From NCBI GenBank assembly GCA_036393515.1, contig DASWGV010000094.1, forward strand, positions 5,527-69,526: a stretch of DNA of 64,000 nt, given 5' to 3'. This document shows, piece after piece, positions 25,084 through 39,699 of this stretch; the first letter of the stretch is position 1; each line of letters begins with the position of its first letter. The position numbers were made by a program, and so were the translations under genes. The notes beneath the pieces are model-generated. The model saw nothing but the letters and a program-made list of their open reading frames with translations, was not told the origin of the DNA and did no database searches. Source of the DNA: Gemmatimonadales bacterium (GTDB taxonomy: Bacteria > Gemmatimonadota > Gemmatimonadetes > Gemmatimonadales > GWC2-71-9).

Positions 25084-26043
25084 TCACGCGGGAGCGCCTG
25101 TTGGTTTGCTGGCCGGCGATGCGATCCCAAGGCGTGTCGCGGTGAGCACCGTCCAACGATGGCGCACCCATTCCCAGTCGACGAAGAGCAGAATAAGCCA
25201 GGCCTCACCCACGTGGATGTTCATGGTCACCAGGATCCCGACGTGAAACGCAAGCGCCAACGGGACCAGCCAAACGCGTGCTCCGCGCCTGAGGAGCGCG
25301 AGAATGAAGCTCCATTCCAGCAGGACCGCACCAACGCCGATGGCCAGGCAGATGGCCGGGCGGTCGGCGAGCCACAGGCCCGGTAACCGAAAAACCGACA
25401 CGCGGTCGTCAAGGTTGAACAGCAGGAACCACCGCCGCATGTTGTCCGCCGAACTCCACGAGAGCCCCGTTTGCATCAGCTTCCCGTACGCGGCAAACAG
25501 GTAAATTTGGCAGACCAGCAGCTGAATCAGCCGAAGCGGCCACCCGTGTCCCCATGATGCCGTGGGTTGCGTCGAGAGTTGCGCGCGTCGTTCGCGCGTC
25601 ACGGCCAGCCGGTCGCCAGATCGGGAGCAGGCGAGGACGATCAGGGCGGCAGGCGCGAGTGTCAGTCCACGCGCGTAGGGTGATGCGGTCCAGATGATCG
25701 ATTCCAGTGGCGCCAGGTGGTACAGCAAGACCCCCGCGATGGCGCTCGATACCCGTGGGTAGATACCCAACAAGGTGCCAAAGAGCGCTCCGATGGCGCT
25801 CCACTGGAGCGTCTGCTCCAATGCCGGGTGACCTTCGAACAGGAGGTAGCGCCAGCGCAGGCTTTCCGGCACCCCCGTCCAGAAATCGGGAAGGCCAGCA
25901 ATGGCCGCGTAATCGCGAGACAGGAGGAACCAAAGAGCATGGGCGGCAACGATTACGCGGGCGGCGGCGAGGTTGAACGCATGCTCCGGCTCGAACCAGA
26001 ATCGATTCCAGGCCGCTGCCGCTCTTCGAGAGAGGTGGGTCAG
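25084..26043 (-). CDS. HTTM-domain (vitamin-K gamma-carboxylase-like / SdpB-like) polytopic membrane protein; no canonical start codon
   Basis: ORF 25084..25872 plus 73 upstream in-frame codons. Those codons encode the expected HTTM N-terminus (AAAWNRFWFEPEHAFNLAAARVIVAAHALWFLL) but contain no ATG, GTG or TTG. The 5' end is set at the CTG (26043) that overlaps the upstream TGA. Confidence 0.7.
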   Translation of the reverse strand: MTHLSRRAAAAWNRFWFEPEHAFNLAAARVIVAAHALWFLLSRDYAAIAGLPDFWTGVPESLRWRYLLFEGHPALEQTLQWSAIGALFGTLLGIYPRVSSAIAGVLLYHLAPLESIIWTASPYARGLTLAPAALIVLACSRSGDRLAVTRERRAQLSTQPTASWGHGWPLRLIQLLVCQIYLFAAYGKLMQTGLSWSSADNMRRWFLLFNLDDRVSVFRLPGLWLADRPAICLAIGVGAVLLEWSFILALLRRGARVWLVPLALAFHVGILVTMNIHVGEAWLILLFVDWEWVRHRWTVLTATRLGIASPASKPTGAPA

Positions 26044-26693
26044 GGGTCTCCCGGGAACTCGAATACTCGGACGAGTTGGATCGAGTGGGGATTACGGCGT
26101 CGAGCCTCGACGTTGTAGTACTCCCGGTACAATCGGATCCGGACGAACGGCTCCGGCGGTAGGTCGGCGGTTCCTGACCAGATTGTCGGGTGCAGGGTGT
26201 GAGAGGGGGCCACCAACGGACCCAGGAAGCGGTGGAAGTACCCGGGTGGTCGGCCCGCTTGCACCGCCGACCAGCCCTGGTTCGCGCGGCTGAGCAGAAA
26301 CGCCCCGACGCGGACGCGTTCACCCGCGGCCAGCGTGGGCAGGACGCGATGCCACCATGTGCCGAGCTCCTCGATGTTCAGCGGTTGCCACACACGGTAG
26401 TCGACGGGGTACTCGATGCCTCGGGTGTCCACCGCGGCGACGCGGATGCGCGCGGGCTTTGGGCTGTCTCCGATATCGCGGGGGGCGGTCCCGACCATGA
26501 GTGCCCAGGAGGAGAATGGCCACATGTCGCGTCCCGTGAGAGCGGCGCCAAACGTCGCGGCCACGACGTACAAGATCAGCAGGTTCACCCGACGCCGTTG
26601 CTTCGGGTGTCCGTTCGTCCGCTGTCCCCAAACAACGACAATGCCGCATAGGAGGAAGCCGGCGAAGCACAATCCACTGAAGAGGTTCAACAT
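26040..26693 (-). CDS. N-terminally anchored membrane protein (SdpA-position partner of the HTTM protein)
   Basis: 217 aa with two N-terminal hydrophobic segments and then a soluble domain. Coding-like codon usage. Its stop overlaps the putative HTTM start. Family not recognised with confidence. Confidence 0.55.
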   Translation of the reverse strand: MLNLFSGLCFAGFLLCGIVVVWGQRTNGHPKQRRRVNLLILYVVAATFGAALTGRDMWPFSSWALMVGTAPRDIGDSPKPARIRVAAVDTRGIEYPVDYRVWQPLNIEELGTWWHRVLPTLAAGERVRVGAFLLSRANQGWSAVQAGRPPGYFHRFLGPLVAPSHTLHPTIWSGTADLPPEPFVRIRLYREYYNVEARRRNPHSIQLVRVFEFPGDP

Positions 26694-26729: not shown

Positions 26730-27611
26730 CTACGCCAGGCAAACGTATCCGCCACGGCAGGCGAGGTTCCAGCCGCTGCTGACCCTGGCGATGCTTCCGG
26801 GCCGCTCTTGGTGGCGCGATTCGCTGTAGCCAACCACCCGCCGGTAATGGATGGTCCGTCCGCGAGCATCGGCCAGGGGCTCTCGAAACCGGGACGCGAG
26901 TCCTCCAAGGAAGTGCCACACTCGTTCCACGTCCCATTCTGTGAACCGGACCATCGGCGTTCCCGGATTGACCCGCGGGGCCCGGGTGGCCAACCGTTCG
27001 TCCTGGGGCTGTCGCTGGACGACGCCTCGTTCGATGGCGGCCACCGTACGCCGCAGCAGGGTCGCCCCGCGACGCCCCATTTCGGAATACAACGCGTCGA
27101 TGGGGGTGCCTCGGTGGAGGGCGAACCGCTCCTGATCGAGAAGAGCCCCCGCGTCGGCACGCTCGCCGGCCTCGTGGACCGTCACCCCGGTCTCGCGGTC
27201 GTCGTGGTAGTACGTCCAGAAGTACGGGTTCGCCCCACGGTGACGCGGCAGCAGGGATGGGTGCAGGTTCACGGTGCCGTAACGCGGGATGGTGAGGAGG
27301 CCGGGATCCAGCAGCCAGGGGAACGTCGCGATACAGGCGACGTCAGGCTTGATTTGCGCCAGCGCCGTCATCATCCTTTCATCGCTGCCGCGTTGAGCCC
27401 GAAGCACTGTTATCGGGGCTCGCCGCGTCCACATCGCCACCGGGTCCTTAGGGCGAAGGCCAGTCGCGCGGGCCGCTCTGCCGAGCAGTCTCCTCGCTAG
27501 GGAGGCTGTTGAGACGGGCCTCACGACCGCGACGATTTCGTGGTCCTCCGCCAGGGCCTCCAGGGCCTGGAGACCGAACGTCCCCCCATTGGTCAAGAAG
27601 GCAATCCTCAT
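26730..27611 (-). CDS. formyltransferase (Fmt/PurN-like N-terminal domain plus Fmt-like C-terminal domain)
   Basis: MRIAFLTNG..., the catalytic region TVNLHPSLLPRHRGANP, and 293 aa length. Confidence 0.8.
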   Translation of the reverse strand: MRIAFLTNGGTFGLQALEALAEDHEIVAVVRPVSTASLARRLLGRAARATGLRPKDPVAMWTRRAPITVLRAQRGSDERMMTALAQIKPDVACIATFPWLLDPGLLTIPRYGTVNLHPSLLPRHRGANPYFWTYYHDDRETGVTVHEAGERADAGALLDQERFALHRGTPIDALYSEMGRRGATLLRRTVAAIERGVVQRQPQDERLATRAPRVNPGTPMVRFTEWDVERVWHFLGGLASRFREPLADARGRTIHYRRVVGYSESRHQERPGSIARVSSGWNLACRGGYVCLA

Positions 27612-27632
27612 GACGGACCTTTACGAGAACCG

Positions 27633-28217
27633 ATGTCAGTCTCGATTCCGCACCTCCCGGTGACCCAGCACCCGATCGCCGAACGTGAAGCACGGTTACG
27701 CCAGCTCCTACCGCTGCTCAAGCGGGCGGGCAGCGAATTCGAGTCCGTCTTGAACGGGTCAAGCATGATCCCGGCCATCCCCGACGGCGCAGTGATTCGC
27801 ATTCGATGCGCCAGTCTGGTCGATTGCCGCGTCGGTGACATCGTTGTCACGCAGGACGCTGGGCAGCTGGTTGCGCACCGAATCGTCTATCGGGGGCGTC
27901 GTGCGGCGGCATCGCGGCACATCCTCACGCGGGGAGATGCGCTCTGGCTTCCCGATCCGCCGCTCCCCGTCGACGCCTTGCTGGGGCGTGTGACCGAGGT
28001 CCACCGTAATGGGGCGTGGGCGCCGCCTGAGGGGGCACGGCCGGTCCCGGGGCCCGCTCGACTATGGCTCAGCGTGATCTCGTGGGTCCTTGAGTCCAGC
28101 GTGCCGCTGGCTGTGGGATTGGCGCTGGTCGCGGGCGCCCTTCGGCGACTCACGCTCAGAATGCGTCGGGCGGTCGCACGGCTACGGGCCGGAAGCCGCC
28201 CGCGCGGAGCCGCGTAG
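27633..28217 (+). CDS. S26/S24-family serine peptidase, SipW (ER/archaeal)-type signal-peptidase-like, C-terminal TM anchor
   Basis: NGSSMIPAIPDGAVI (catalytic Ser box), VAHRIV (His box), TRGDA (the KGDNN-equivalent), and a C-terminal hydrophobic segment LAVGLALVAGAL. ATG at 27633. Confidence 0.65.
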   Translation: MSVSIPHLPVTQHPIAEREARLRQLLPLLKRAGSEFESVLNGSSMIPAIPDGAVIRIRCASLVDCRVGDIVVTQDAGQLVAHRIVYRGRRAAASRHILTRGDALWLPDPPLPVDALLGRVTEVHRNGAWAPPEGARPVPGPARLWLSVISWVLESSVPLAVGLALVAGALRRLTLRMRRAVARLRAGSRPRGAA

Positions 28218-28251: not shown

Positions 28252-29037
28252 TCACGTGCCGGGGGTGATGGCCTTCCTGCTCGCCTCTACCGCCGCCCGC
28301 CGGGCCGTTGACATCTCGGCCGCCCTGCGTACTTCATCCGGATCGAAGCCGGCCTCGAGCCGTTCTGCCTGGGCAACCGGGTACTTCGAGACCTCGGTCC
28401 CCCCCCGGGCGAAGACCACCTGGAAGGCCCTGGCCGCGTGGGTCAGGGCCGTTGCCATGCGGAGCACGTTTCGGGGGTCCTGGCCGACCTGCCGCCGGAT
28501 CCATTCGTTGGCAAACCCGACGTGGACGATCTCGTCAGCTTGCTGCGCTTCGAGCATGCGGGTCATCGCGTCGTCGCCCATGGCTTCGGCCTCTCGCACG
28601 CCCAGGGTCACGGCGTCCAGGCCGTCGGCTTCGAAGGTGCGGTTCTCGACCGCCAGGCGGCCGATCAGTGTATTGATTTGCCTCAGGACGCGGTACTGGA
28701 AATTCAAGACGGGATACTCGCCGATGCGAACGCCGCGCGCCCGCATCAGGCGGCTGTAGAACAAGACATGCCGGGCTTCATCGGAACACTGACGTGCCAG
28801 CCACATCCTTATGCCCCAGTCCGCATCCGGGAAGTCCACCAGGCTTTGCGCCGCGTTCTCCATCACGTTGGCTTCCTCGTTCATCTGGCGATGCAGGAAC
28901 TCGCGGCGGTGCTCGGGTGTGCCATCCGCATGATTCACCAACTCGGCCCAGAGTTCCTTAACCGTGAACCGCGCGTCGCGGGCCTGCCCCTCTCCCAGCA
29001 GCGAAGGATCGAGGCCTGGTGGGGCGCTGGTCGTCAC
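28252..29037 (-). CDS. ferritin-like di-iron protein, DUF455-like (paralogue 1)
   Basis: Di-iron carboxylate ligand pattern: NEEA...DEARH...NRTFEA...ADEIVH. Clear paralogy to the upstream gene. Confidence 0.65.
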   Translation of the reverse strand: MTTSAPPGLDPSLLGEGQARDARFTVKELWAELVNHADGTPEHRREFLHRQMNEEANVMENAAQSLVDFPDADWGIRMWLARQCSDEARHVLFYSRLMRARGVRIGEYPVLNFQYRVLRQINTLIGRLAVENRTFEADGLDAVTLGVREAEAMGDDAMTRMLEAQQADEIVHVGFANEWIRRQVGQDPRNVLRMATALTHAARAFQVVFARGGTEVSKYPVAQAERLEAGFDPDEVRRAAEMSTARRAAVEASRKAITPGT

Positions 29038-29846
29038 GCGCTCGCCCTTTCCGCCAGCCGTGAGGGGAGGATCGAGCGGAACCCGGCTTGCCGCAGGACT
29101 TCCTTCACCTCGTCCTCGGTGAAATCCGCAGCCAGTCGGTCATCTACGTTGACCGCCGGTGCGGCCTTTGGCTTGAGGGGGACGCCCACAGCGTTGACTT
29201 CGCCCTCGCGGATCGCAACGTTCTCGTTGGCTCGACCCAGGAAGCGGACGGCCATCGCCACCTTGAGCAACACGGTCGGATCCTGCTCGGTCATCTGCCT
29301 GATCCATCGGTTCGCGAACCGGACGTGCGTGATCTCGTCGGCCAGGATTCCGTCGAGGAGGTCCGCGGTGACCCCGTCGCCCGCCTCCCTCCAGGTGTTG
29401 CGCAACGCGCCGAGGAGGTCGATCAGCCCGGCCTCGAATGTCCGGTTTTGCACAGCCAGACGACCGGGGAGGTTCTCCAACATTCCCGTCACGCCCCACT
29501 CATAGTTGGCGATGGGGAACTCACCCTTGTACCCCCCGAGCTCGCGGAGCCGGCGGTACAACAGGGTGGCGTGACGTGCCTCGTCGGCGGCCTGGCGCGC
29601 CAGCAGCATCCGGAGCTCCCATGGGGCATCCGGGAAGTCCGAGACACACAGCGCAGCGATTTCCAGCGCTCCGGCCTCGTTATTCATGTGGCGATGGATG
29701 CGTTCGCGGCGGGACATGTCCGACATGTCGGGCCATTCGGCCATCTCGGAATCCAGGTCCACACAAGTGAAACACGGCTCCCGCGCGGGTGCCTGTCGGA
29801 GGGTGACGCCACGGACCACCTTGGTCTCAAACGACACGCCAGTCAC
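29034..29846 (-). CDS. ferritin-like di-iron protein, DUF455-like (paralogue 2)
   Basis: NNEA...DEARH...NRTFEA...ADEITH. Shares blocks with paralogue 1 (DFPDAxW, LARQxxDEARH, GRLAVxNRTFEA, FANxWIR). 4-nt overlaps at both ends. Confidence 0.65.
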   Translation of the reverse strand: MTGVSFETKVVRGVTLRQAPAREPCFTCVDLDSEMAEWPDMSDMSRRERIHRHMNNEAGALEIAALCVSDFPDAPWELRMLLARQAADEARHATLLYRRLRELGGYKGEFPIANYEWGVTGMLENLPGRLAVQNRTFEAGLIDLLGALRNTWREAGDGVTADLLDGILADEITHVRFANRWIRQMTEQDPTVLLKVAMAVRFLGRANENVAIREGEVNAVGVPLKPKAAPAVNVDDRLAADFTEDEVKEVLRQAGFRSILPSRLAERASA

Positions 29847-30406
29847 ACAACCTCCGCGGTCTTGGGCGGAGGCCGGAAATCGACGTAGTCCCGGGCACTG
29901 GCGGCCATCCTCCTGAGGCGCTCCAGCCAGGCTCGGTCGGCGGTCGGGAGGTCCGGACGTTCCTGGCCGAGCTGCTCTCGGTCCCGCCGCATCCTCGTGA
30001 AGTCGGCCAGCACGCGTTCGAGGATGCGGACCGTGGGCTCGTCCATCAGGTGGTCGGTCTCATCGAGATAGCGGCGGCAGCGGGACCCCAGGTCGGGCAT
30101 GAGGACCTCGAAAAAACCGTCGAGGCGCTCAGGGGTTCCCGCCGCCCCAGCCATGGTCTCGAGGACCACCATGAACGCCGCAGTCGGCCGGCGGGATTGA
30201 TGGAGTCCGAGGCGCAGCTCCGCGGTTCGCTTGCCGAACGCGTCGGCGTGCTGGGCCAGATCCCACAGATGCCGTCCGAAGAGCACCTTGACCTCGAGCT
30301 CCGGCGTGGTCGGTACCCAGCGCGCCAGGGTTTCCATCAGGTAGACCGAAATGAAGCGAAAGGTCGCGACCGCATCCGCTTTTTCCCGAATCGACAGCCC
30401 CATCAA
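29843..30406 (-). CDS. hypothetical all-helical protein (possible ferritin-like accessory subunit)
   Basis: 187 aa, helix-rich (FISVYLMETLARWV, GRHLWDLAQHADAFGKR, LMDEPTVRILERVL). Translationally coupled on both sides. Family not recognised. Confidence 0.45.
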   Translation of the reverse strand: MMGLSIREKADAVATFRFISVYLMETLARWVPTTPELEVKVLFGRHLWDLAQHADAFGKRTAELRLGLHQSRRPTAAFMVVLETMAGAAGTPERLDGFFEVLMPDLGSRCRRYLDETDHLMDEPTVRILERVLADFTRMRRDREQLGQERPDLPTADRAWLERLRRMAASARDYVDFRPPPKTAEVV

Positions 30407-31497
30407 TCCTCCGGAAGTCGTTCGAGGACATCGGCCGCTTCATCGGCCGACCTTACCTCCAGGAAATAACAGCGCACCTGCGAAAACAGTGTGAGCACCC
30501 GCATAACGCGCTCCGCCGGTCGCGCACGCCACAGCGAGCACCCTAACGGGGAGAATATCGCCCACTGATCCCGCCCGGGTACGAACCGGACCAACCTGGT
30601 CGTATCCCCGAACCCGCGGAGCACAACGACCGATCGGAGCGGGACCGGTCTGACTCCGGACTCGGGAAACAGCTCACCGACCCGTCCCCGCAGGCGGGTC
30701 GAGCCGTCGGGGAACGCCTCGGTTTGGAGGTGGGCCTGAGCCAGCGTCCGCTGCACGGCGGTGGCCGTCGGCCCGGGCCGCACCGAAACGGACCGGCGGA
30801 ACGGAAGCAGGACCCGGGTCGCGACGCGCACCGCGGCCACTTCGTCCCCAAGAAAGTCGTGACCGCGCGCCGCCAGCGCCAGGGCCAATGTCGTTTTTCC
30901 CGCTCCCTTGGGCCCGGTGAGCAGCATCCCGGCACCGTTCACGCCGAGCGCCGCCGCGTGGTAACACAGGAGGTCCGGCTGCTGGCCGAGCACCTGGTTG
31001 ACCGCGAGGTTGGCCACGAACCGCTGCCAAGGCGCCCGTCGGTCGACGAGGATCTCGTCCGCCCCGAATGCGAAGAGCGTCCCACTCCCGTCACTCGGCG
31101 TCAGTCCGCGCCAGCCCGCGGTGCCGACCGCGACCTCCCGGTATCCTCGGCCGCCGAAAAGATGCAGGGCAAACTCCATCAGGTCGAGTCGTCCACCGTC
31201 CACCTGCACCAGGGAGCGCGACGGGGAGTCGATCGACCGTACCGAGTAGGCCACCGGCGTACCTTCCGGTGCCGCGCCCCGCGTCGCGCACTCCCGATAC
31301 AGTTCGTCAAACCGGTTGGAGAACTCGGCGTCATCGGCCCGTACGCCAAGATGCCCATCACCGAGCCGGTACCACGTGGTTCCGGTCGGGATGGGCATCC
31401 GGTCGAACTTCGAATGGCAGGCTGCGATGTCTTGGGGCGACCGCAATCCTACGGACGGCTTGTGGGCTGCACCGTCCGGATCACGCTCCCCGGCCAT
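30403..31497 (-). CDS. HprK-related P-loop serine kinase-like protein
   Basis: The C-terminal half has GMLLTGPKGAGKTTLALALAARGHDFLGDEV, the HPr-kinase C-domain P-loop pattern. 364 aa. Confidence 0.75.
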   Translation of the reverse strand: MAGERDPDGAAHKPSVGLRSPQDIAACHSKFDRMPIPTGTTWYRLGDGHLGVRADDAEFSNRFDELYRECATRGAAPEGTPVAYSVRSIDSPSRSLVQVDGGRLDLMEFALHLFGGRGYREVAVGTAGWRGLTPSDGSGTLFAFGADEILVDRRAPWQRFVANLAVNQVLGQQPDLLCYHAAALGVNGAGMLLTGPKGAGKTTLALALAARGHDFLGDEVAAVRVATRVLLPFRRSVSVRPGPTATAVQRTLAQAHLQTEAFPDGSTRLRGRVGELFPESGVRPVPLRSVVVLRGFGDTTRLVRFVPGRDQWAIFSPLGCSLWRARPAERVMRVLTLFSQVRCYFLEVRSADEAADVLERLPED

Positions 31498-31536: not shown

Positions 31537-31656
31537 CTACCACCACCAACTTGCGCCGGCGCTGGTGATCTGGAAGGCCGCCAGCATTTCGGTTTCGTCC
31601 ATGACCTTCACCGTCGGCGTCTGGTACTTGCGTTTGGACACGGGGGTCTGCTTCAT
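31537..31656 (-). CDS. candidate RiPP/cofactor precursor peptide, 39 aa (MKQTPVSKRKYQTPTVKVMDETEMLAAFQITSAGASWWW)
   Basis: Read by hand; it is below the ORF-track size cutoff. ATG at 31656, TAG at 31539-31537, and GAGGAG 5 nt upstream. 34 of 39 codons end in G/C. It sits between the PqqD-like and HprK-like genes on the same strand. It has a YxxPxV leader-like motif. Confidence 0.6.
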   Translation of the reverse strand: MKQTPVSKRKYQTPTVKVMDETEMLAAFQITSAGASWWW

Positions 31657-31696: not shown

Positions 31697-32035
31697 TCAC
31701 ACGGGAACGACGATCTTCAACTCCGCAAACTGTCGTAGGGTCTTCTGAACGTCCTGCGCGGCCAACGGCGCGTCCACACCCTCGAATTCGCTACAGAGCT
31801 GTGATGACAGATCATCTTCGCTCCTCGGGTGCTCCAGCAGCTTCCAGAGGAACGCCGCCGTCTCGTTCAGCACGCAGAACTTCTTGGTCACAGGGTTGAA
31901 CAACACCGCTTCGTCCTGCATCGGCGCCGCTTCAATCTCCGGACTTCGCTGATACCGTGTCACACCCACCCTCCCACTGGCAACAGCTTCAATAACTTCG
32001 CTACCGGAAGCTGTCAAGACAAGCACGGCCATCAC
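31697..32035 (-). CDS. PqqD-family peptide-binding protein (RRE-type chaperone)
   Basis: EAVLFNPVTKKFCVLNETAAFLWKLLEHPRSEDDLSSQLCSEF...DVQKTLRQFAELKIV matches the PqqD pattern. The start (GTG 32035 or ATG 32032) overlaps the upstream stop. Confidence 0.8.
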   Translation of the reverse strand: MMAVLVLTASGSEVIEAVASGRVGVTRYQRSPEIEAAPMQDEAVLFNPVTKKFCVLNETAAFLWKLLEHPRSEDDLSSQLCSEFEGVDAPLAAQDVQKTLRQFAELKIVVPV

Positions 32036-32940
32036 ACCAGCGTTGCTCGCTCGGCCACTTCTCGTTTGGGACCCTCCGGGTCTTCACGCGTGGGCCTCCG
32101 AGGCGCGAATTGGCGCGCGAGTAGCCCGAACGGCGTAACGAGGTGGGCGAGGAGCGACTCCTTCATTTCGAGTCCCGGAACGCCGTAACGCACCGGGCGC
32201 GGCGCATGAGTGATGGCGGTTCCGAAAACATAGTCCCAAAAACTGAACATCGCTCCGAAGTTCCTGTTTGCGTGCGCCGGGTCCGTCGAGTGGTGAATGG
32301 AGTGAAACACGGGGCTGACGACCACCGGGTACCCGGGGCCAAACCGCCAATTCAACTCGGCATGTTGCAGGGCCTGCAGGGCGACGAGGATCGCGTACAG
32401 TGGGATCCAGGTGCGCATGGGAATGCCGAGGATCAACACGAACACGACGAACATCACCACTTGGGCATAGAGCATCTCCAGCGGGTGACGCCGGTACTGC
32501 GTGAGGGTGTTCAACTGCTCCTGAGAATGATGGACGGTGTGGAATGCCCACAACATCGGTACCGCATGCTGTAACCGGTGGATCCAGTAGAGCACGAAGT
32601 CGCCGACGATGAGATAGATGGGAACCGCGATGATGGAGGGCATGTTGGGAAGGAGCTCGAGCCGCAGGAATTCCAGGCGGGCCCCCAGCGCGTTCGTGAC
32701 CACGGAGAGAATGAACATCACGTACACGCCGCTCCGGTAAAACAGCGCCCAAGCAGCGTCCGTCGCAAAATGCTTGGAGAGGAGTCGGCGCGACGACACG
32801 CCCTGGCGTCGCTCCGCCAGCTGCACGAGGATCACGACACCCAACAGCAGCGCGGTGCCGAACAGCGCCGATCTCGTCAGCTCTCCCAATCGCAGCGTCG
32901 CGACGAGGTCCGTGGCGACGTCCGGTTCGCTTGTTGTCAT
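32032..32940 (-). CDS. fatty-acid hydroxylase / sterol desaturase superfamily membrane di-iron enzyme
   Basis: Three histidine boxes (HRLQH, HTVHH, HSIHH) in a polytopic membrane protein of 302 aa. Confidence 0.85.
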   Translation of the reverse strand: MTTSEPDVATDLVATLRLGELTRSALFGTALLLGVVILVQLAERRQGVSSRRLLSKHFATDAAWALFYRSGVYVMFILSVVTNALGARLEFLRLELLPNMPSIIAVPIYLIVGDFVLYWIHRLQHAVPMLWAFHTVHHSQEQLNTLTQYRRHPLEMLYAQVVMFVVFVLILGIPMRTWIPLYAILVALQALQHAELNWRFGPGYPVVVSPVFHSIHHSTDPAHANRNFGAMFSFWDYVFGTAITHAPRPVRYGVPGLEMKESLLAHLVTPFGLLARQFAPRRPTREDPEGPKREVAERATLV

Positions 32941-33030: not shown

Positions 33031-34995
33031 CTACTCGAAGCGGACCGCGAAGCGCTCAGCCCACATCGTCACGCCGACGATACGCCACAGGAGAAACGCC
33101 TGCCGCATGCCTAGTGTGCCCCCGACCCGCACCGACGCCGATAGCGGTCCCAATCCCGCCCGGGACAGCGCCGGAATCCGCCCGGCGGCTTCGAGGAGCT
33201 CGGTCAGGCGGGGGATCTGTGCCGGCCAGGTGTGTACCGGCACGGCGAATCCGACCTTGTCGGTCCGGTTGAGGATCGCCTCGGGGACGATCCCCCGCAT
33301 AGCCTCCCGGAAGACCCGCTTGGTCGATCCATCATTTCCGATCACGTAGTCCTCCGGGAGGCTCAGCACGAATTCGGCGAGCTCGCGCGTCAGGAATGGC
33401 AACCGTCCCTCCACGGAGTGCGCCATCGAGTTCCGATCCTCATACCGGAGCAAGATCGGCAGATTCACCTCCATGCCGTGCCGCAGCGCGCCGCGGAGCA
33501 CGTGGTGGTCGCTGACCCGAAGGGGTGGCCGCCCCTCGACACGCTGCTCCCGACACCAGGCTGCATTGATCCAGGGTTGCACCTTCCGGCTTCTGAATTG
33601 AGGCGAGAACCGTGGAGGCAACGACAACTGGATACCCCTCGCGGCGGTATGCCACGTCGGGGCCCCGCGTGCGTCACGCCGCCGCGCGGTCTGCCGAAGG
33701 AAGCGGCCCGCGGTGATGAATGAGCCTTCTCGCAGCATCGTGGCCAGGCGAGGTCCCCATTGGTGCCGATACCCGCCCATCACCTCGTCTCCGCCCTGGC
33801 CGCCCAAAACGACCGGCACCCCGGCTGCCCGCGCCGCCCCGAAGAGCCGGTATTGCGCGTAAATGGCGATGCTACCGAACGGCTCGCCCTGCGCCTCGAC
33901 CACCCGATCGATGTCCACCAACCAATCGCGAGGCTCCAGGTGGACTTTGTGTGGCAGCGCCTGGGAGGCCCCGTTCACCATGTCGATCCAGGACTCCTCG
34001 CTCACCGCTCCTTGCCCGCCGATATAGCTGAATGTGTGAAGATCGAGGCTTGGGCCGGCAAGGTGCCGCATCGCCATGACGATGGACGACGAATCGGTGC
34101 CACCGGACAACAGGGTCCCCACCGGTACATCACTGCGGAGATGCAGCGAAACGCTTTCCAGAAAGAGCTCTCGCAGACGAGAGGCCGCTCCCTGGAAGGC
34201 GAGCGGACGCTCGTTTGGCGTGATCTCCAAGCGCCAATATCTGAGCGGCCGGAAATCGTCCAGACGGTCGAGGCCGACGGTGACCGAGTGCGCCGGAGGG
34301 ACCGCGCGGATGTCTGCGAACGGGGTCGCAGCCGAGTGTCCCGTGATCCCCGTGTCGAGATACTCAAAAAGGGACTGGGGATCGACCCTCCGGCTGACCC
34401 CACGGAATCCGAGGAGCGCCGGGATTTCGGAGGCGATCACCCAACCCGACGGGATCCGCGCGTAGTACAGCGGCTTCATGCCGAAACAATCCCGTGCCAG
34501 GAACAGCCGGCCGGCGTGGAGATCGAGAATCGCGATCGCGTACATACCGTTCAGCCGTCCGAGGCACGCGGCCCCCCATTCCGCATAAGCCTGCAGCAGA
34601 ACCTCCGTATCGGAGCGTGATCGGAAGGGCCGACCACACGCTTCCAATTCCCGGCGCAATTCGAGATAGTTGTAGATCTCCCCGTTCAGCATCACCGCGT
34701 ACCGGCCGTCGGGACTGACCATTGGTTGGTGTCCGGCTTCGGTCCGGTCAATGATCGCGAGGCGCCGGTGGCTGAAGATCACGTTGGCCCACCCCTCGCG
34801 GTCACCCATCGGAGGGTGAATCTCACTGAGCTGGTCGTGCGCACTCCATTGGTGGGCTTGCCCCCGGCTCGGCCGGAAGACCAGGATGCCGCGATCGTCC
34901 GGGCCCCGGTGACCGACAGCGATGGCTGCGGCCCTCACGGACTCAGACATCTGATCGGGATCTGCGTGACCTACATAGACGACGATGCCGCACAT
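33031..34995 (-). CDS. asparagine synthase (glutamine-hydrolysing) family amidotransferase
   Basis: MCGIV N-terminal nucleophile, HRGPD, HRRLAIID, NGEIYN, SDTEV, and the PP-loop LLSGGTDSS. ATG at 34995 was chosen; the ORF-track extension is non-homologous. Confidence 0.9.
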   Translation of the reverse strand: MCGIVVYVGHADPDQMSESVRAAAIAVGHRGPDDRGILVFRPSRGQAHQWSAHDQLSEIHPPMGDREGWANVIFSHRRLAIIDRTEAGHQPMVSPDGRYAVMLNGEIYNYLELRRELEACGRPFRSRSDTEVLLQAYAEWGAACLGRLNGMYAIAILDLHAGRLFLARDCFGMKPLYYARIPSGWVIASEIPALLGFRGVSRRVDPQSLFEYLDTGITGHSAATPFADIRAVPPAHSVTVGLDRLDDFRPLRYWRLEITPNERPLAFQGAASRLRELFLESVSLHLRSDVPVGTLLSGGTDSSSIVMAMRHLAGPSLDLHTFSYIGGQGAVSEESWIDMVNGASQALPHKVHLEPRDWLVDIDRVVEAQGEPFGSIAIYAQYRLFGAARAAGVPVVLGGQGGDEVMGGYRHQWGPRLATMLREGSFITAGRFLRQTARRRDARGAPTWHTAARGIQLSLPPRFSPQFRSRKVQPWINAAWCREQRVEGRPPLRVSDHHVLRGALRHGMEVNLPILLRYEDRNSMAHSVEGRLPFLTRELAEFVLSLPEDYVIGNDGSTKRVFREAMRGIVPEAILNRTDKVGFAVPVHTWPAQIPRLTELLEAAGRIPALSRAGLGPLSASVRVGGTLGMRQAFLLWRIVGVTMWAERFAVRFE

Positions 34996-35387: not shown

Positions 35388-36677
35388 GTGATGCCGGGAG
35401 CGATCGGGCCTGACGGCCTCGGCGTCGCGGAACGCCGGCTACTTCTGACGCTGTTGCGTCCATCGGTTGAGACTCAGCCCGCCCTCCGGGCGGACGCCGG
35501 CGACTGGGTCAGGCTGGCCGAAGCGATTCCCTGGGGGCTCGCGCCGTACGTCTACTGGTCCGCGACAAGGGTGGCAGCCAGCGCGGCGATCCCGAAGGAA
35601 CCCCTGGAACAGCTGCGGGCCGTCACCGGCCGCCTTGCCCTGACGCGCCTGCGTCAGCAGGCCGCGTTCCGCAGCGTCTGCGTTGGGCTGCGTGAGGCGA
35701 ACGTCCCCCATTTGGTGCTCAAAGGCGCAGCGCTGGCGCACCTCGTCTATCCCGATCCCGGTCTCCGCCCCATGAGTGACGTCGATCTCTGGGTGCCAGC
35801 GGACCGGCTCGAACAAGCCACGGCCATCCTGATGGCCCAGGGTCTGGAGTACCCCGAGCGCGTACGACTGGGTGCGCCGGTGGGAAGTCCGCCCGATCGA
35901 GCCTCCAGCCGAACGCTCGAGCCCCCCGGTGGCGGCGTGACGATCGAACTGCACGGGTCCGTTCCTTCACTGCACGGCGTTTCCTGGGGGACCTTCGACG
36001 CCGCGTGGCGGTCGGCCGTGCCCGCGACGCTCCACCACATCCCGGCGCACATCCTCTGCCCGTTTCACTTCCTGACTCACGTGGGCCTTCACGCCGCCCG
36101 GCGCGAACGCTTTCGCACCGGTCTGCTGCCGCTGCTCGACATCGCCCTCCTGGCCGACCATTGGACTCGCGAGTGGGACTGGGACGGGATGGCGGCGGCT
36201 TGGAATCGGGAGCGCGTTGGTCCGTGGATGCTCCTCTGTCTCACCCTGGCCCGAGACCTCCTGGCCGCGCCCATTCCCCACGATCTGGAGCGCCGCTGCG
36301 GCGTCCCGGTCGGCTGGACCGAAATGCGACAACTGGCGGAGGAACAGCTCTGGGACGGGCCGCGGTATCGGTTCCTGCTCGACCCCATGCGGGTTCGTGC
36401 AAACCGGGGCCTGCTGGGTTGGATGCGCCAGCGCATCGTGGATTACTACTGGCATTCGCCCCAACCACGTCCCGTGGCCGAGGTCGTGCGCGATGCGTTC
36501 CGCCGCGCGCGGTTTGACCTCACGGTCAAGCTGCCGCGCCACGTCCGGGGCTGGCGCAGCGGCGTGGTGGACCTGGGCTCACTGCGCCGCGGCGCCGCGT
36601 TGGCGCACGCCCGGCGCCAGCTGGAACAGCTGGTCCTTGGAGCGGGCGGCTTGGGCAGTCCGGATAGCGAGCCGTGA
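35388..36677 (+). CDS. uncharacterised nucleotidyltransferase family protein (NTP_transf_5-like)
   Basis: 429 aa. The pattern LVLKGAALAHLVYPDPGLRPMSDVDLWV...IELH is typical of the family that co-occurs with PqqD/HprK-like genes and lasso-type clusters. Confidence 0.7.
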   Translation: MMPGAIGPDGLGVAERRLLLTLLRPSVETQPALRADAGDWVRLAEAIPWGLAPYVYWSATRVAASAAIPKEPLEQLRAVTGRLALTRLRQQAAFRSVCVGLREANVPHLVLKGAALAHLVYPDPGLRPMSDVDLWVPADRLEQATAILMAQGLEYPERVRLGAPVGSPPDRASSRTLEPPGGGVTIELHGSVPSLHGVSWGTFDAAWRSAVPATLHHIPAHILCPFHFLTHVGLHAARRERFRTGLLPLLDIALLADHWTREWDWDGMAAAWNRERVGPWMLLCLTLARDLLAAPIPHDLERRCGVPVGWTEMRQLAEEQLWDGPRYRFLLDPMRVRANRGLLGWMRQRIVDYYWHSPQPRPVAEVVRDAFRRARFDLTVKLPRHVRGWRSGVVDLGSLRRGAALAHARRQLEQLVLGAGGLGSPDSEP

Positions 36678-36811: not shown

Positions 36812-37228
36812 GTGGCCTCCCCCTCGGTTGTTTCATCCGAAGTCGTCCAGACCGCCCAGGACAGCTACGACCGCTGTCGGCAGGCCCACGACTTTTTCCC
36901 CAAGTTCTACAACCGCCTGCTGGCCAGCAACGAGTCCATCCCGCCGATGTTCGTCAACACATCGTTCGAGAAGCAGAACAAGCTGCTCGATCACGGCATC
37001 GGGAGCTTGCTGATTTTCGCCAAACGGCGGAACCCGGCCCTCCTGCAACGGATCGCGGAGCGTCACGGCCGCCGTGACCTCGCCGTCAAGCCGTCCCTGT
37101 ACGGCTGCTTTCTGGACAGCCTGATCGCCGCGGTGGCGGAGTTCGATCCGCAGTTCAGCCCTGACGTCGAGCGGGCGTGGCGCGCTGCCATGACGCCCGG
37201 TATCGAGTTCATGAAGGCGGCGTTCTAG
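36812..37228 (+). CDS. single-domain globin
   Basis: 138 aa. VQDSYDRC...FFPKFYNRLL...F...KQ..LL.HGI...A.RH...V is a globin-fold pattern with a proximal-His candidate in AERHGRR. AAGGAG lies 8 nt upstream of the GTG start. Confidence 0.65.
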   Translation: MASPSVVSSEVVQTAQDSYDRCRQAHDFFPKFYNRLLASNESIPPMFVNTSFEKQNKLLDHGIGSLLIFAKRRNPALLQRIAERHGRRDLAVKPSLYGCFLDSLIAAVAEFDPQFSPDVERAWRAAMTPGIEFMKAAF

Positions 37229-37230
37229 CG

Positions 37231-39699
37231 ATGACCACGCAGGCCGCATGCGCCACCTGCGGCGCAGCAATCGAGGCGGGTGCTCGCTTTTGCGCCAGCT
37301 GCGGCACGGATGTCTCCGGCGAGCAGGGCAGCGTTGCGACCCGCCAGCTCAAGCCCAGCGCCGGGACCGCTGAGATCCGGGCCCTGCTACTCGAACGGCT
37401 CCGTGACGCCACGCTGGGAGACCTGGAGATTCTGGTTGAGCTGGGCCGCGGCGGGATGGCGACCGTCTATCTGGGGCACGACATCCACCTGGACCGCAAG
37501 GTCGCCGTCAAAGTCATGCACCCCGCGTTGCTCGAGGGCGAGGGCATGGTAGAGCGGTTCAAGCTGGAGGCCCGCACCGCCGCCAAGCTGAGCCACCCCC
37601 ACATCATCCCCATCTTCGCCGTCCGCGACGCCGACCAACTGCTCTACTTCGTCATGAAATTCGTCGAGGGGCGTCCCCTCGATTCCATCATCAAGGAGAT
37701 CGGCAAGCTGCCCATCCCCATGGTGCAGTCCATCCTCTCCAAGGTCGGCGAGGCGCTGGGCTATGCCCACCGGCACGGCGTCATCCATCGAGACATCAAG
37801 CCGGCCAACATCATGATTGACGTGGAGGGGCTGCCGGTCGTCACCGACTTCGGGATTGCCAAGGTGGCGGACAAGCAGGGCCTCACCATGACCGGCGCGA
37901 CCGTCGGCACGCCCACCTACATGAGTCCCGAGCAATGCACCGCCGGTACCATCACCGGCGCCACGGACCAGTACTCACTGGGCGTGGTGGCCTACGAGAT
38001 GCTCACCGGTCGCCTGCCGTTCCAGGGCGAGACCATCGTGAGCCTGATGTACAAGCACTGCCACGAGCCGCCCCCGCCGTTCCAGGAGATGCGCCCGGAT
38101 TGTCCCCCGGCGCTGCACGACGCGGTCATGCGCATGCTGCGCAAGGCGCCCGACGAACGGTTCCCCTCCATGGAGGCGGCGGTGGCCGAGATCGGCACGG
38201 TGGCGCTGGGCTTCGACGACCCCGTGCGGACGCAGCTCATCAGCTTGGCCAAGCAGGGCGAGAACCTGACGATCCTGAAGCGGGTAAGCACACCAACCAG
38301 CCAGACTCCCCTCGGCACCCGGGCGAAACGCACGGCGGTTCCGCGATCGGTGACGTCCGCGCCCACGGTGATTGAGCGGGCCAACCTGCCGCCTGAGCGA
38401 CGCCGCAGTCCCGTCGTCGCCGCTGCGGGTGGTGCCCTTGCGGTTGCGGCGGTGGCGCTGGTCCTCTGGCTCAAGCCCTGGGCCGGAGCAGCTCCCGCCG
38501 GATCGGCGATGCCAACGGCTGATCCAGGCGCTCCGGGCACGCTGCCCGCCGCCCGACTGACAGTCGAACCGGCGACGGCCCAACTCGTCGTGGGTGGCAC
38601 CATGCAGCTTGGGGCGACGATCCGGGCGGCTGATGGGAGCGGAAAGCCTGCGGGGGACGCGCGCTGGTCATCCACCAACCCGAGTGTGGCCTCCGTTTCC
38701 CCGGCGGGGCTGGTGACGGCCCTTGCTGCCGGCGCGACGACCATTCGCGTGACGACCGCGACCGGCGAGGCAGCCGCGGAGCTTCAGGTCGCGGCGGCGG
38801 CTGCCGCGCCATCCCCGGGCGGCGGGCCGGCGCCCGTCGTGGTGGCCTCGGTGCGGTTGGAGAGCGCGCCCGGGGTGCTCCGCGTGGGCGAGACCACTAC
38901 CCTACGCGCCACCGTGCTGGACCGGGCCGGGCGGCCGGTGGCCGGGCGTGACGTGACCTGGTCCAGTAACGACCGGTCGCGAGCCACGGTGTCGGCGGCA
39001 GGTGTGGTCACCGCACTGGCTCCGGGGGTGGTGCGGATCACGGCTCTCAGCGACGGTGCCAGTATCCTTCACACGCTGGAGATCGAGCCGGCGCGCGTCG
39101 CGTCCGTCACGGTCTCGCCGCCTCCCGGGGAGATCCCGGTTGGGGGATCGGCGCGACTGACCGCGACCCTCCACGCCGGGGACGGCCGTGCGCTGGCGGA
39201 TCGCGCCATGGTGTGGCGCAGCGCCAACCCGGGCGTCGCCACGGTGCAGGACGGCCTCGTGGTCGGCGTGGCGCCCGGCTCAAGCGTCATCAGCGCTGGC
39301 AGCGACGGGATCGAAGGCTCCGTCCCTGTTACGGTGGCCACGCCCGCTGCGGCGGCTAGGCCGACATCGGTGGATCCGCGGGAGGCAGTCGGCGCGGTCA
39401 TTCAGGAATACGCGCGCGCTCTGGAGTCGCGGGATATCACCGAGGTGCGGCGGGTCTATCCCGGCATTCCGGCCAACCAGGAGGCGCAGGTCGCCCAGAC
39501 ATTGCGCTCGCTGGACAACCTGAAGGTGACCCTGACGGTGCAACGGCTGGAGATTCGCGAAGACGTGGCCCGCGCCGACGTCAGCGGGCAGTACAATTTC
39601 TTCAGCCGCGACAACCGGCGGAACGAAAACCTCCCGGTCCGGCTCCAGATGGTCCTGGAACTGCGAGGCGGCGGTTGGCGTATCCAGTCCATTCAATGA
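37231..39699 (+). CDS. Ser/Thr protein kinase with N-terminal zinc-ribbon, TM segment, three Big_2-type Ig-like repeats and C-terminal NTF2/SnoaL-like domain
   Basis: CATCG...CASCG zinc ribbon. Hanks kinase motifs GRGGMATVY, VAVKV, HRDIKPANIM, DFGIAK, GTPTYMSPE. Repeated ...VSPAGLVTALAAGATTIRV... Ig-like modules. Confidence 0.9.
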   Translation: MTTQAACATCGAAIEAGARFCASCGTDVSGEQGSVATRQLKPSAGTAEIRALLLERLRDATLGDLEILVELGRGGMATVYLGHDIHLDRKVAVKVMHPALLEGEGMVERFKLEARTAAKLSHPHIIPIFAVRDADQLLYFVMKFVEGRPLDSIIKEIGKLPIPMVQSILSKVGEALGYAHRHGVIHRDIKPANIMIDVEGLPVVTDFGIAKVADKQGLTMTGATVGTPTYMSPEQCTAGTITGATDQYSLGVVAYEMLTGRLPFQGETIVSLMYKHCHEPPPPFQEMRPDCPPALHDAVMRMLRKAPDERFPSMEAAVAEIGTVALGFDDPVRTQLISLAKQGENLTILKRVSTPTSQTPLGTRAKRTAVPRSVTSAPTVIERANLPPERRRSPVVAAAGGALAVAAVALVLWLKPWAGAAPAGSAMPTADPGAPGTLPAARLTVEPATAQLVVGGTMQLGATIRAADGSGKPAGDARWSSTNPSVASVSPAGLVTALAAGATTIRVTTATGEAAAELQVAAAAAAPSPGGGPAPVVVASVRLESAPGVLRVGETTTLRATVLDRAGRPVAGRDVTWSSNDRSRATVSAAGVVTALAPGVVRITALSDGASILHTLEIEPARVASVTVSPPPGEIPVGGSARLTATLHAGDGRALADRAMVWRSANPGVATVQDGLVVGVAPGSSVISAGSDGIEGSVPVTVATPAAAARPTSVDPREAVGAVIQEYARALESRDITEVRRVYPGIPANQEAQVAQTLRSLDNLKVTLTVQRLEIREDVARADVSGQYNFFSRDNRRNENLPVRLQMVLELRGGGWRIQSIQ

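Follow-up and report, generated by a model that had tools for sequence, protein, structure and literature searches.

A 64,000-nucleotide (nt) stretch of DNA from a Gemmatimonadales bacterium (GenBank assembly GCA_036393515.1, contig DASWGV010000094.1, positions 5,527 to 69,526; the whole stretch is hereafter called the window) was analysed for a group of three overlapping genes that encode the proteins Hel187, DUF455-A and DUF455-B (the triad; the latter two hereafter A and B), and that lie close to the gene of a 39-amino-acid (aa) peptide. The results suggest that the locus represents a previously undescribed and widely distributed pathway, similar to those that yield RiPPs (peptides made by the ribosome and modified after translation) and dependent on a RiPP recognition element (RRE), with the triad as its signature tailoring enzyme. 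On balance, the peptide appears to be the substrate of a heteromeric di-iron module built from three paralogues of the DUF455 superfamily; tryptophan (Trp) is proposed more tentatively as the modified residue, and the chemistry is possibly new.

The proteins of the window were scored against the Pfam and NCBIfam models, the paralogues were compared by BLASTP, and one genome per GTDB species was scanned for the locus, which gave 112 matching loci, 80 of which were kept (individual loci are designated L and a number). In the window, Hel187 (29843..30406, - strand), a degenerate DUF455-superfamily subunit with no di-iron site, has 187 aa from a TTG start, or 186 aa from the ATG at 30403 that is used in the public record. 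It is followed by A (29034..29846, -; 270 aa), an intact ferritin-like di-iron carboxylate protein, and by its intact paralogue B (28252..29037, -; 261 aa), both of Pfam DUF455. The Hel187/A and A/B junctions are 4-nt GTGA overlaps, readable in the sequence, and the HprK-like gene positioned between the precursor open reading frame (ORF) and the triad overlaps Hel187 by 4 nt when TTG is taken as the start and by 1 nt when ATG is, in a region with a GC content of 66%. The preliminary description of this DNA had placed the triad beside a Trp-rich precursor and a kinase, with a helical protein translationally coupled by a 4-nt overlap to the paralogues; both the arrangement and the coupling were confirmed and recur across phyla. 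Of 72 loci, 60 kept the stop/start overlap of 4 or 1 nt between HprK and Hel187; that between Hel187 and A was kept in 52 of 77, and the distance from A to B was -4 nt in 40 of 78 loci and +4 nt in 16 more.

BLASTP aligned A and B over 236 residues at 42% identity (E = 8e-49), and the blocks previously pointed out as common to both, DFPDA.W, LARQ..DEARH, GRLAV.NRTFEA, ADEI.HV.FAN.WIR and QDP, were all seen in their pairwise alignment. Their whole-protein scores against Pfam DUF455 (PF04305) were 92.0 and 82.1 bits, respectively, both above the gathering cutoff of 34.3 bits, and no NCBIfam model matched A, B or the 187-aa protein. The full di-iron ligand sets earlier read from the tandem paralogues were also retained by their homologues. 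A, B and the orthologues of three loci were aligned first, and a wider alignment of some 80 loci from at least five phyla then took in 90 sequences of the A type and 80 of the B type. The ligands E57, E89, H92, E138, E171 and H174 of A were found to be invariant (90/90), and E55, E87, H90, E136, E169 and H172 of B were at least 97% conserved. A conserved polar shell surrounds the site (H51, Q85, D88, R91, N134, R135, D143, D157, D170 and N179). In the AlphaFold2 (AF2) model of A, with a predicted local distance difference test score (pLDDT) of 89.2, the ligands are located mid-helix on four long helices (43-70, 76-102, 126-154 and 158-188), to which extra N-terminal strands and C-terminal helices are added. 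The nearest solved folds were aldehyde-deformylating oxygenase (ADO), bacterioferritin, the azoxy synthase VlmB, PaaAC and toluene-4-monooxygenase (T4moH). The top Foldseek matches in the Protein Data Bank (PDB) were all ferritin-like for A as well as for Hel187, with E-values of only 3e-3 to 0.2, and since no fold match of A was better than E = 3e-3, DUF455 is without a close solved relative. The models of A and Hel187 both show long antiparallel helices in a four-helix-bundle core, and, by this fold in A and by their complete ligand sets, A and B are assigned to the ferritin-like di-iron carboxylate superfamily. The family profile aligned the ligand motifs with the ferroxidase-centre motifs of bacterioferritin; the match was local, covering the ligand helices at query positions 84-177 (E = 1.3e-4), and an identity as bacterioferritin or rubrerythrin was rejected, as only these helices matched and the proteins are about 100 aa longer than the cage subunit of about 160 aa. 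The search for orthologues of A gave 1955 matches, of which the top 120 (66-100% identity) came from metagenome-assembled genomes of Gemmatimonadota and were named only DUF455 or hypothetical; some Joint Genome Institute (JGI) records label orthologues "bacterioferritin" or "rubrerythrin".

Hel187 matched no Pfam or NCBIfam model, none of its 901 homologues found by sequence search was named, and its profile found nothing meaningful among the PDB chain sequences. Its AF2 model (pLDDT 93.8) is a helical bundle of six helices, with the best PDB folds being the ferritin-like YciF, CADD, TenA, PaaC and the T4mo beta subunit (template-modelling scores of 0.5-0.66, E-values of 0.03-0.2). PaaC and the T4mo beta chain are non-catalytic partner subunits. 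Profile searches on the 187-aa protein, as proposed in the preliminary description, pointed to remote DUF455 homology: the alignment by hhalign of the Hel187 and DUF455 profiles, both enriched by domains of the fusion proteins described below, reached a probability of 96% (E = 3.7e-9) over 160 columns, with residues 6-170 of Hel187 set against 44-210 of A. The six ligand positions of A correspond in Hel187 to S19, L49, H52, M102, F135 and M138, so that only the His is left (kept in 81% of the sequences), which rules out a canonical di-iron centre in Hel187; the protein is strictly conserved despite the lost metal site. From these profile comparisons, Hel187 is classified as a remote, degenerate third paralogue of the DUF455 superfamily. 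The earlier view of a "helical partner" was thus correct as to its helical nature and its coupling, and needs amendment in that the partner is not unrelated to A and B. Likewise, the operon had been credited with up to four non-heme di-iron-type proteins, a number that falls to three intact ones (A, B and a membrane FA_hydroxylase) because the 187-aa protein has no di-iron site.

The relationship between Hel187 and DUF455 was further illuminated by natural fusions. The search of 1.84 billion representatives with the Hel187 profile gave 967 relatives, and about a fifth of the top 150 were 300-550 aa long. In most of the long relatives tested, by Pfam and local hidden Markov model (HMM) searches, an N-terminal Hel187-like domain was followed by an intact C-terminal DUF455 domain, in fusion proteins of 400-550 aa. 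Weak matches of the DUF455 profile to the N-terminal domains were in proper register, with p about 4e-8 for P0340 and about 2e-7 for P0326 (the latter retaining ADEERH in helix D), and the Hel187 profile reciprocally gave weak matches to the C-terminal domains, which are nearly as close to B (34% identity, E = 2e-28) as to A (37%, E = 7e-34). The fused family comprised 427 matches, from Bacteroidota, Ignavibacteria, KSB1 and Syntrophorhabdaceae. Fused genes of about 405 aa were located at L085:8001-9215, L086:8001-9221 and L087:8001-9233, and in all three contigs a glycoside hydrolase (GH) of family 38, an alpha-mannosidase, was adjacent or near, with GH3, ROK and M1/M28 peptidases variable. 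The two-domain scaffold thus predates the peptide pathway and is not confined to it. Following the "Rosetta-stone" principle, by which proteins that are separate in one organism are found fused in another, these natural fusions suggest that Hel187-like and DUF455 domains work together physically. The proposed Hel187:A:B heteromer is strengthened by the fusions and by the conserved coupling.

The distribution of the locus was determined by searching all ORFs of the kept loci with the proteins of the window, and the counts were taken from the 45 loci flanked on each side by 6 kb or more. The identity of A across the kept loci ranged from 49% to 78%, and the carriers belong to Gemmatimonadota, to Acidobacteriota (Vicinamibacteria, Thermoanaerobaculia and Terriglobia), to Burkholderiales, Steroidobacteraceae and Pseudomonadales, to Binatia and to Rokubacteria, with Sphingomonas antarctica CIP111604T and Betaproteobacteria bacterium GR16-43 as cultured representatives. 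The core recurring in about 80 loci consists of PqqD, the small peptide, the HprK-like protein, Hel187, A, B and an S26-type peptidase. Hel187, B and the S26 peptidase were present in 45/45 loci, PqqD in 44/45, the HprK-like protein in 43/45 and the precursor, as detected by phmmer, in 39/45; AsnB (35/45), NTP_transf_5 (32/45), the formyltransferase (31/45), FA_hydroxylase (29/45) and a pair of 217- and 262-aa proteins (21/45) were less frequent. The preliminary description had raised the possibility that homologues occur in contexts unrelated to small peptides; at identities of at least 49%, their context was that of the window, with PqqD in 44/45 and the precursor in 68/81 loci. Rearrangements were seen at L009:5894-10807 and L013:3956-13455, where B or the precursor and kinase genes are relocated or strand-switched and Hel187 and A are still adjacent; the adjacency kept in such loci mirrors the fused form.

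The precursor peptide, MKQTPVSKRKYQTPTVKVMDETEMLAAFQITSAGASWWW, is encoded at 31537..31656 (-), has 39 aa with an SWWW end, and is preceded by a GAGGAG ribosome-binding site. It is the only such ORF within the window, and it matched no Pfam or NCBIfam family. Of 81 distinct loci, 68 contain a homologue of this small ORF, and the aligned block gave 67 different nucleotide sequences. The 68 include the precursors of the long-flank loci L048, L056, L074, L081, L082 and L083, six of the eight that phmmer had failed to detect and that were recovered by hand, and gene callers skip the precursor in some records (L002, for example). Pairwise differences at codon positions 1, 2 and 3 were 0.38, 0.24 and 0.57, respectively, and, given this third-position excess, the precursor ORF behaves as a translated gene. 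The leader carries a Tyr/Pro/aliphatic register (window 31540-31626, -) that is shared with the 67 homologues: counted from the Phe, Y-17 was conserved in 66/67, P-14 in 67/67, V, I or L at -12 in 65/67 and L-3 in 66/67 sequences. In the core, F0 was found in 65/67 and Q+1 in 67/67 sequences, and W-W was present in all 68 loci, separated from F-Q by a spacer of seven residues in 49/68 loci and followed by one or two residues in 43/68. Neither the core of the window, FQITSAGASWWW, nor most of the 68 homologues contain an acidic residue between F-Q and W-W. The leaders of lasso peptides carry a YxxPxL motif at -17 to -12 that is bound by PqqD-type RREs (PMC10368454), and the matching register in the present leader suggests, by analogy, that the core begins at the invariant Phe. 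In three loci, no stop separates the PqqD ORF from the precursor, and the reading frame continues from one into the other (L056:7924-8391, L074:9385-9849 and L081:9269-9841); these ORFs are read from their sequences as natural RRE-precursor fusion proteins.

Variant loci with a changed core provided the main indirect argument on the substrate. In loci L058, L063, L064, L065, L067, L071, L074 and L081, a clade from Burkholderiales, Binatia, Rokubacteria and Steroidobacteraceae, the precursor is immediately followed by a third DUF455 gene, of the A-like kind, and the cores of these three-copy loci read FQMTAAEIS.A.CWW, followed by Cys-containing tails. The same core occurs in L082 (9732-12656) and L083, which have two DUF455 copies in the gene order A-Hel187-B and are without the HprK-like gene; these kinase-less loci are proteobacterial, the complete genome CP019169 being among them. 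The enzyme complement and the core sequence co-vary, which argues that the DUF455 proteins act on the core.

The neighbouring genes of the window comprise the remaining conserved functions and several accessories. The PqqD-family RRE (31697..32035, -) was identified by Pfam PqqD (E = 2.7e-15), with sub-threshold matches to the models of the lasso PqqD chaperone and the HPr-rel-A PqqD. The HprK-related P-loop protein, a putative kinase (30403..31497, -), matched Hpr_kinase_C and TIGR04352 below their cutoffs and retains an intact GPKGAGKTT motif. The S24/S26 peptidase (27540..28217, +), of the SipW or archaeal-type signal peptidase I-like kind with a C-terminal membrane segment, matched TIGR02228 (E = 1.5e-8) and, weakly, Peptidase_S24; it is usually placed directly after B and is the probable leader peptidase. 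Among the accessories, the membrane FA_hydroxylase (32032..32940, -; Pfam E = 1.3e-29) is a histidine-box di-iron protein whose translation shows the boxes HRLQH, HTVHH and HSIHH, and the glutamine-dependent asparagine synthase homologue AsnB (33031..34995, -) scored 384 bits against TIGR01536 (cutoff 267). The AsnB ORF extends to 35178, which adds a 61-codon N-terminal extension before MCGIV at codon 62; judged from the sequence, MCGIV (34995) is probably the true start, and the intact glutaminase nucleophile Cys points to an amidotransferase rather than a lasso-type cyclase. The other accessories are the NTP_transf_5 nucleotidyltransferase (35388..36677, +; Pfam PF14907, E = 1e-37), a formyltransferase homologue (26730..27611, -; Formyl_trans_N, E = 5.6e-25) and a pair of uncharacterised proteins (25084..26693, -) composed of one of 217 aa (26040-26693) and a membrane protein of 262 aa (25084-25872) with a weak HTTM match (E = 0.005). 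This pair occurs in two or three copies at several loci (L044, L060, L066, L070 and L073). Just beyond the NTP_transf_5 gene, at 37177-39699 (+), the window encodes a protein of 840 aa in which a zinc ribbon, a domain of Ser/Thr protein kinases and Big_2 repeats are combined, and L003 has an 837-aa gene at a similar position.

In the proposed mechanism, Hel187 and A, and probably B, would form a hetero-oligomer in which A and B are catalytic and Hel187 is structural or presents the substrate. The PqqD protein would first bind the lasso-type Y-x-x-P-x-[VIL] leader, after which the di-iron module would oxidise the core with O2 by hydroxylation, cross-linking or desaturation, most likely at the invariant Trp-Trp pair, possibly with one Trp for each catalytic subunit. 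The HprK-like protein would then phosphorylate the peptide or spend ATP otherwise, and the membrane S26-type peptidase would cut off the leader, either at L-x-[A/V/T/S]|F-Q, which is consistent with the lasso-like register, or at a downstream T-S-A-like site. In some lineages, AsnB, the formyltransferase, the nucleotidyltransferase and the membrane hydroxylase may finally decorate the product. A more specific version, considered quite improbable as it stands, is that the triad oxidises or cross-links the adjacent Trp residues, together with Cys in the three-copy clade, to a tryptophylquinone-like moiety (resembling tryptophan tryptophylquinone or cysteine tryptophylquinone) or to another redox- or metal-active one. 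Oxidase-type chemistry, in which the electrons would come from the substrate (cross-linking, desaturation or quinone formation, for example), would agree with the lack of a dedicated reductase; host ferredoxins are also possible electron donors.

Several observations weigh against the peptide as substrate of a three-paralogue di-iron module. No reductase or ferredoxin gene was found in the conserved or accessory set of about 80 loci, and an oxygenase cycle would therefore need electrons from the host or from the substrate. The first hhalign comparison, with narrow Hel187 and DUF455 profiles, was not significant (probability of 0.24%), and significance was reached only after the profiles had been enriched with the fusion-protein domains. 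Near the fusion genes of the three contigs examined there was no PqqD, kinase or small conserved peptide, and these non-peptide contexts indicate that the DUF455 scaffold is not intrinsically peptide-specific. The lipid- or sugar-type accessories (FA_hydroxylase, formyltransferase and nucleotidyltransferase) leave room for a non-peptide co-substrate, and the boundary between leader and core is uncertain, lying either before F-Q or after the T-S-A-like site.

The strongest of the competing possibilities, though an unlikely one, is that the triad oxidises something other than a peptide (an acyl chain, a sugar nucleotide or a small metabolite, for instance), with the product later attached to the peptide or used independently. 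The distant fused homologues in carbohydrate and peptidase loci without a small peptide would be accounted for in this way, as would the frequent presence of an OlsE-like hydroxylase, an ArnA/Fmt-like formyltransferase, NTP_transf_5 and AsnB, which is typical of lipid or glycan decoration, and the near folds, among them ADO, acyl-ACP desaturase, PaaAC and VlmB, whose substrates are lipids or small molecules. However, the accessories are missing in 22-36% of the well-flanked loci, whereas the triad, PqqD, the precursor and the S26 peptidase are essentially universal; moreover, the core sequence varies together with the DUF455 copy number, and translational coupling joins the triad to the HprK-like gene, immediately downstream of the precursor. 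It is somewhat less probable still that A and B are independent, sequential enzymes, with Hel187 serving as a peptide-binding adaptor or chaperone and not as a structural subunit. Complete metal sites are kept in both A and B, B is apart from Hel187-A in L009, the order is A-Hel187-B in L082 and L083, and the fusions join Hel187 with only one DUF455 domain, all of which speak for this reading, but A and B overlap or are separated by no more than 4 nt in most loci, and the fold matches are to the hetero-oligomeric PaaAC and to multicomponent monooxygenases. Ferritin-like oxygenases with degenerate partners, such as PaaAC and the multicomponent monooxygenases, are obligate hetero-oligomers. A role of the DUF455 proteins as iron-storage or detoxification ferroxidases of the bacterioferritin or rubrerythrin type, with the peptide neighbourhood incidental, is very improbable: some JGI names and the local bacterioferritin profile match (E = 1.3e-4) speak for it, but the match is confined to the ligand motifs, A and B have 260-270 aa with extra strands and helices and many additional invariant polar residues around the site, synteny and coupling with RiPP machinery are found in about 80 loci across phyla, and one paralogue is site-less yet strictly conserved. 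Hardly credible at all is a small ORF that is spurious or a regulatory leader in a locus that is no RiPP pathway, an idea that could draw on the missing Pfam or NCBIfam family and on the copies missed by gene callers (L002), and that is opposed by the 67 nucleotide versions with their third-position excess, the invariant Y, P, L, F, Q, W and W, the ribosome-binding site, the lasso-type leader beside a PqqD RRE and the in-frame RRE-precursor fusions.

DUF455 is a large ferritin-like family that extends from bacteria to eukaryotes. In full-text literature searches, neither DUF455 nor this set of genes was found with a described function, DUF455 being mentioned only incidentally, and the RiPP reviews retrieved with terms related to DUF455, ferritin-like proteins and RiPPs contained no mention of ferritin-like enzymes; the preliminary statement that DUF455 proteins are uncharacterised in peptide maturation agrees with the absence of any functional account in the literature searched. 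The locus gives DUF455 its first functional context and a testable substrate hypothesis, the 39-aa peptide with an invariant F-Q...W-W core, and the cultured carriers Sphingomonas antarctica CIP111604T and Betaproteobacteria bacterium GR16-43 make experiments feasible. The metalloenzymes that tailor ribosomal peptides include radical S-adenosylmethionine (SAM) enzymes, cytochromes P450, multinuclear non-haem iron-dependent oxidases (MNIOs) and alpha-ketoglutarate-dependent enzymes. If the peptide is indeed the substrate of the triad, the ferritin-fold di-iron scaffold would join this group, a new RiPP class would be present in soil Gemmatimonadota, Acidobacteriota and Proteobacteria, and the lasso-type module of leader and RRE recognition would have been recruited to work with tailoring and cleavage enzymes of wholly different kinds. 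Should the Trp-quinone-like version be true, a new class of peptide-derived cofactor or metallophore would extend across at least five phyla and RiPP maturation would have in the triad its first known di-iron enzyme of the ferritin fold. The degenerate paralogue, fused to DUF455 elsewhere, is also a clear case of the evolution of a pseudo-enzyme partner.

Among known systems, the closest likeness in architecture is to PaaA/PaaC and to the alpha and beta subunits of T4mo, in which a catalytic four-helix-bundle subunit with the E/ExxH/E/ExxH set is likewise combined with a homologous ligand-less subunit; PaaA and T4moH are among the best fold matches of A, PaaC and T4mo beta are among those of Hel187, and the genes are adjacent and co-translated in a similar manner. 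In contrast to these enzymes, the proteins described here have no significant sequence similarity to those families, the conserved set includes no reductase, ferredoxin or effector protein, there are two catalytic paralogues and not one, and the presumed substrate is a leader-bound ribosomal peptide instead of a small aromatic compound or a coenzyme A ester. With the lasso clusters of the paeninodin/BsfA type, which comprise an HPr-kinase, a nucleotidyltransferase and a split B1, the locus has in common the PqqD-type RRE and the leader with Y-17, P-14 and a hydrophobic residue at -12, as well as the HprK-like protein, NTP_transf_5 and the asparagine-synthase homologue, whereas an S26-type peptidase takes the place of the B2 transglutaminase-type protease and the DUF455 triad is class-defining. 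As to the leader, the YxxPxL register and a PqqD-type RRE are both present, with the lasso-specific PqqD models below their cutoffs. No match to a B2 transglutaminase-like protease was obtained among the 13 conserved cluster proteins, and the AsnB homologue, in which the glutaminase domain is retained, scored 244 bits against the lasso cyclase model NF033535 (cutoff 525). Classification as a lasso cluster was rejected for the missing B2 protease, for the cyclase score below cutoff and for the lack, in most cores, of an Asp or Glu at positions 7-9 for the lactam. Haft's HPr-rel-A system was also rejected and is regarded as related, the locus not being a member, with scores of 51.7 bits for TIGR04352 (cutoff 200) and 28.7 bits for TIGR04353 (cutoff 35). 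The systems of the MNIOs (DUF692), namely MbnBC, the bufferins and TglHI, similarly have a non-haem iron enzyme that activates O2 and works beside a partner without catalytic function on a leader-bound ribosomal peptide, and are also widely distributed with highly conserved precursors (PMC9060507, PMC12452194). No DUF692 gene was seen in the region of the window scanned, and the two kinds of system differ in fold (a TIM barrel there, a four-helix bundle here), in the metal site and in the partner, which is an RRE-type protein in the MNIO systems and a degenerate paralogue in the present one. Finally, compared with the other members of Pfam DUF455 (PF04305), which, fused forms included, lie in unrelated contexts, this clade is distinguished by the tandem A and B, the degenerate third paralogue and the synteny with RiPP genes.

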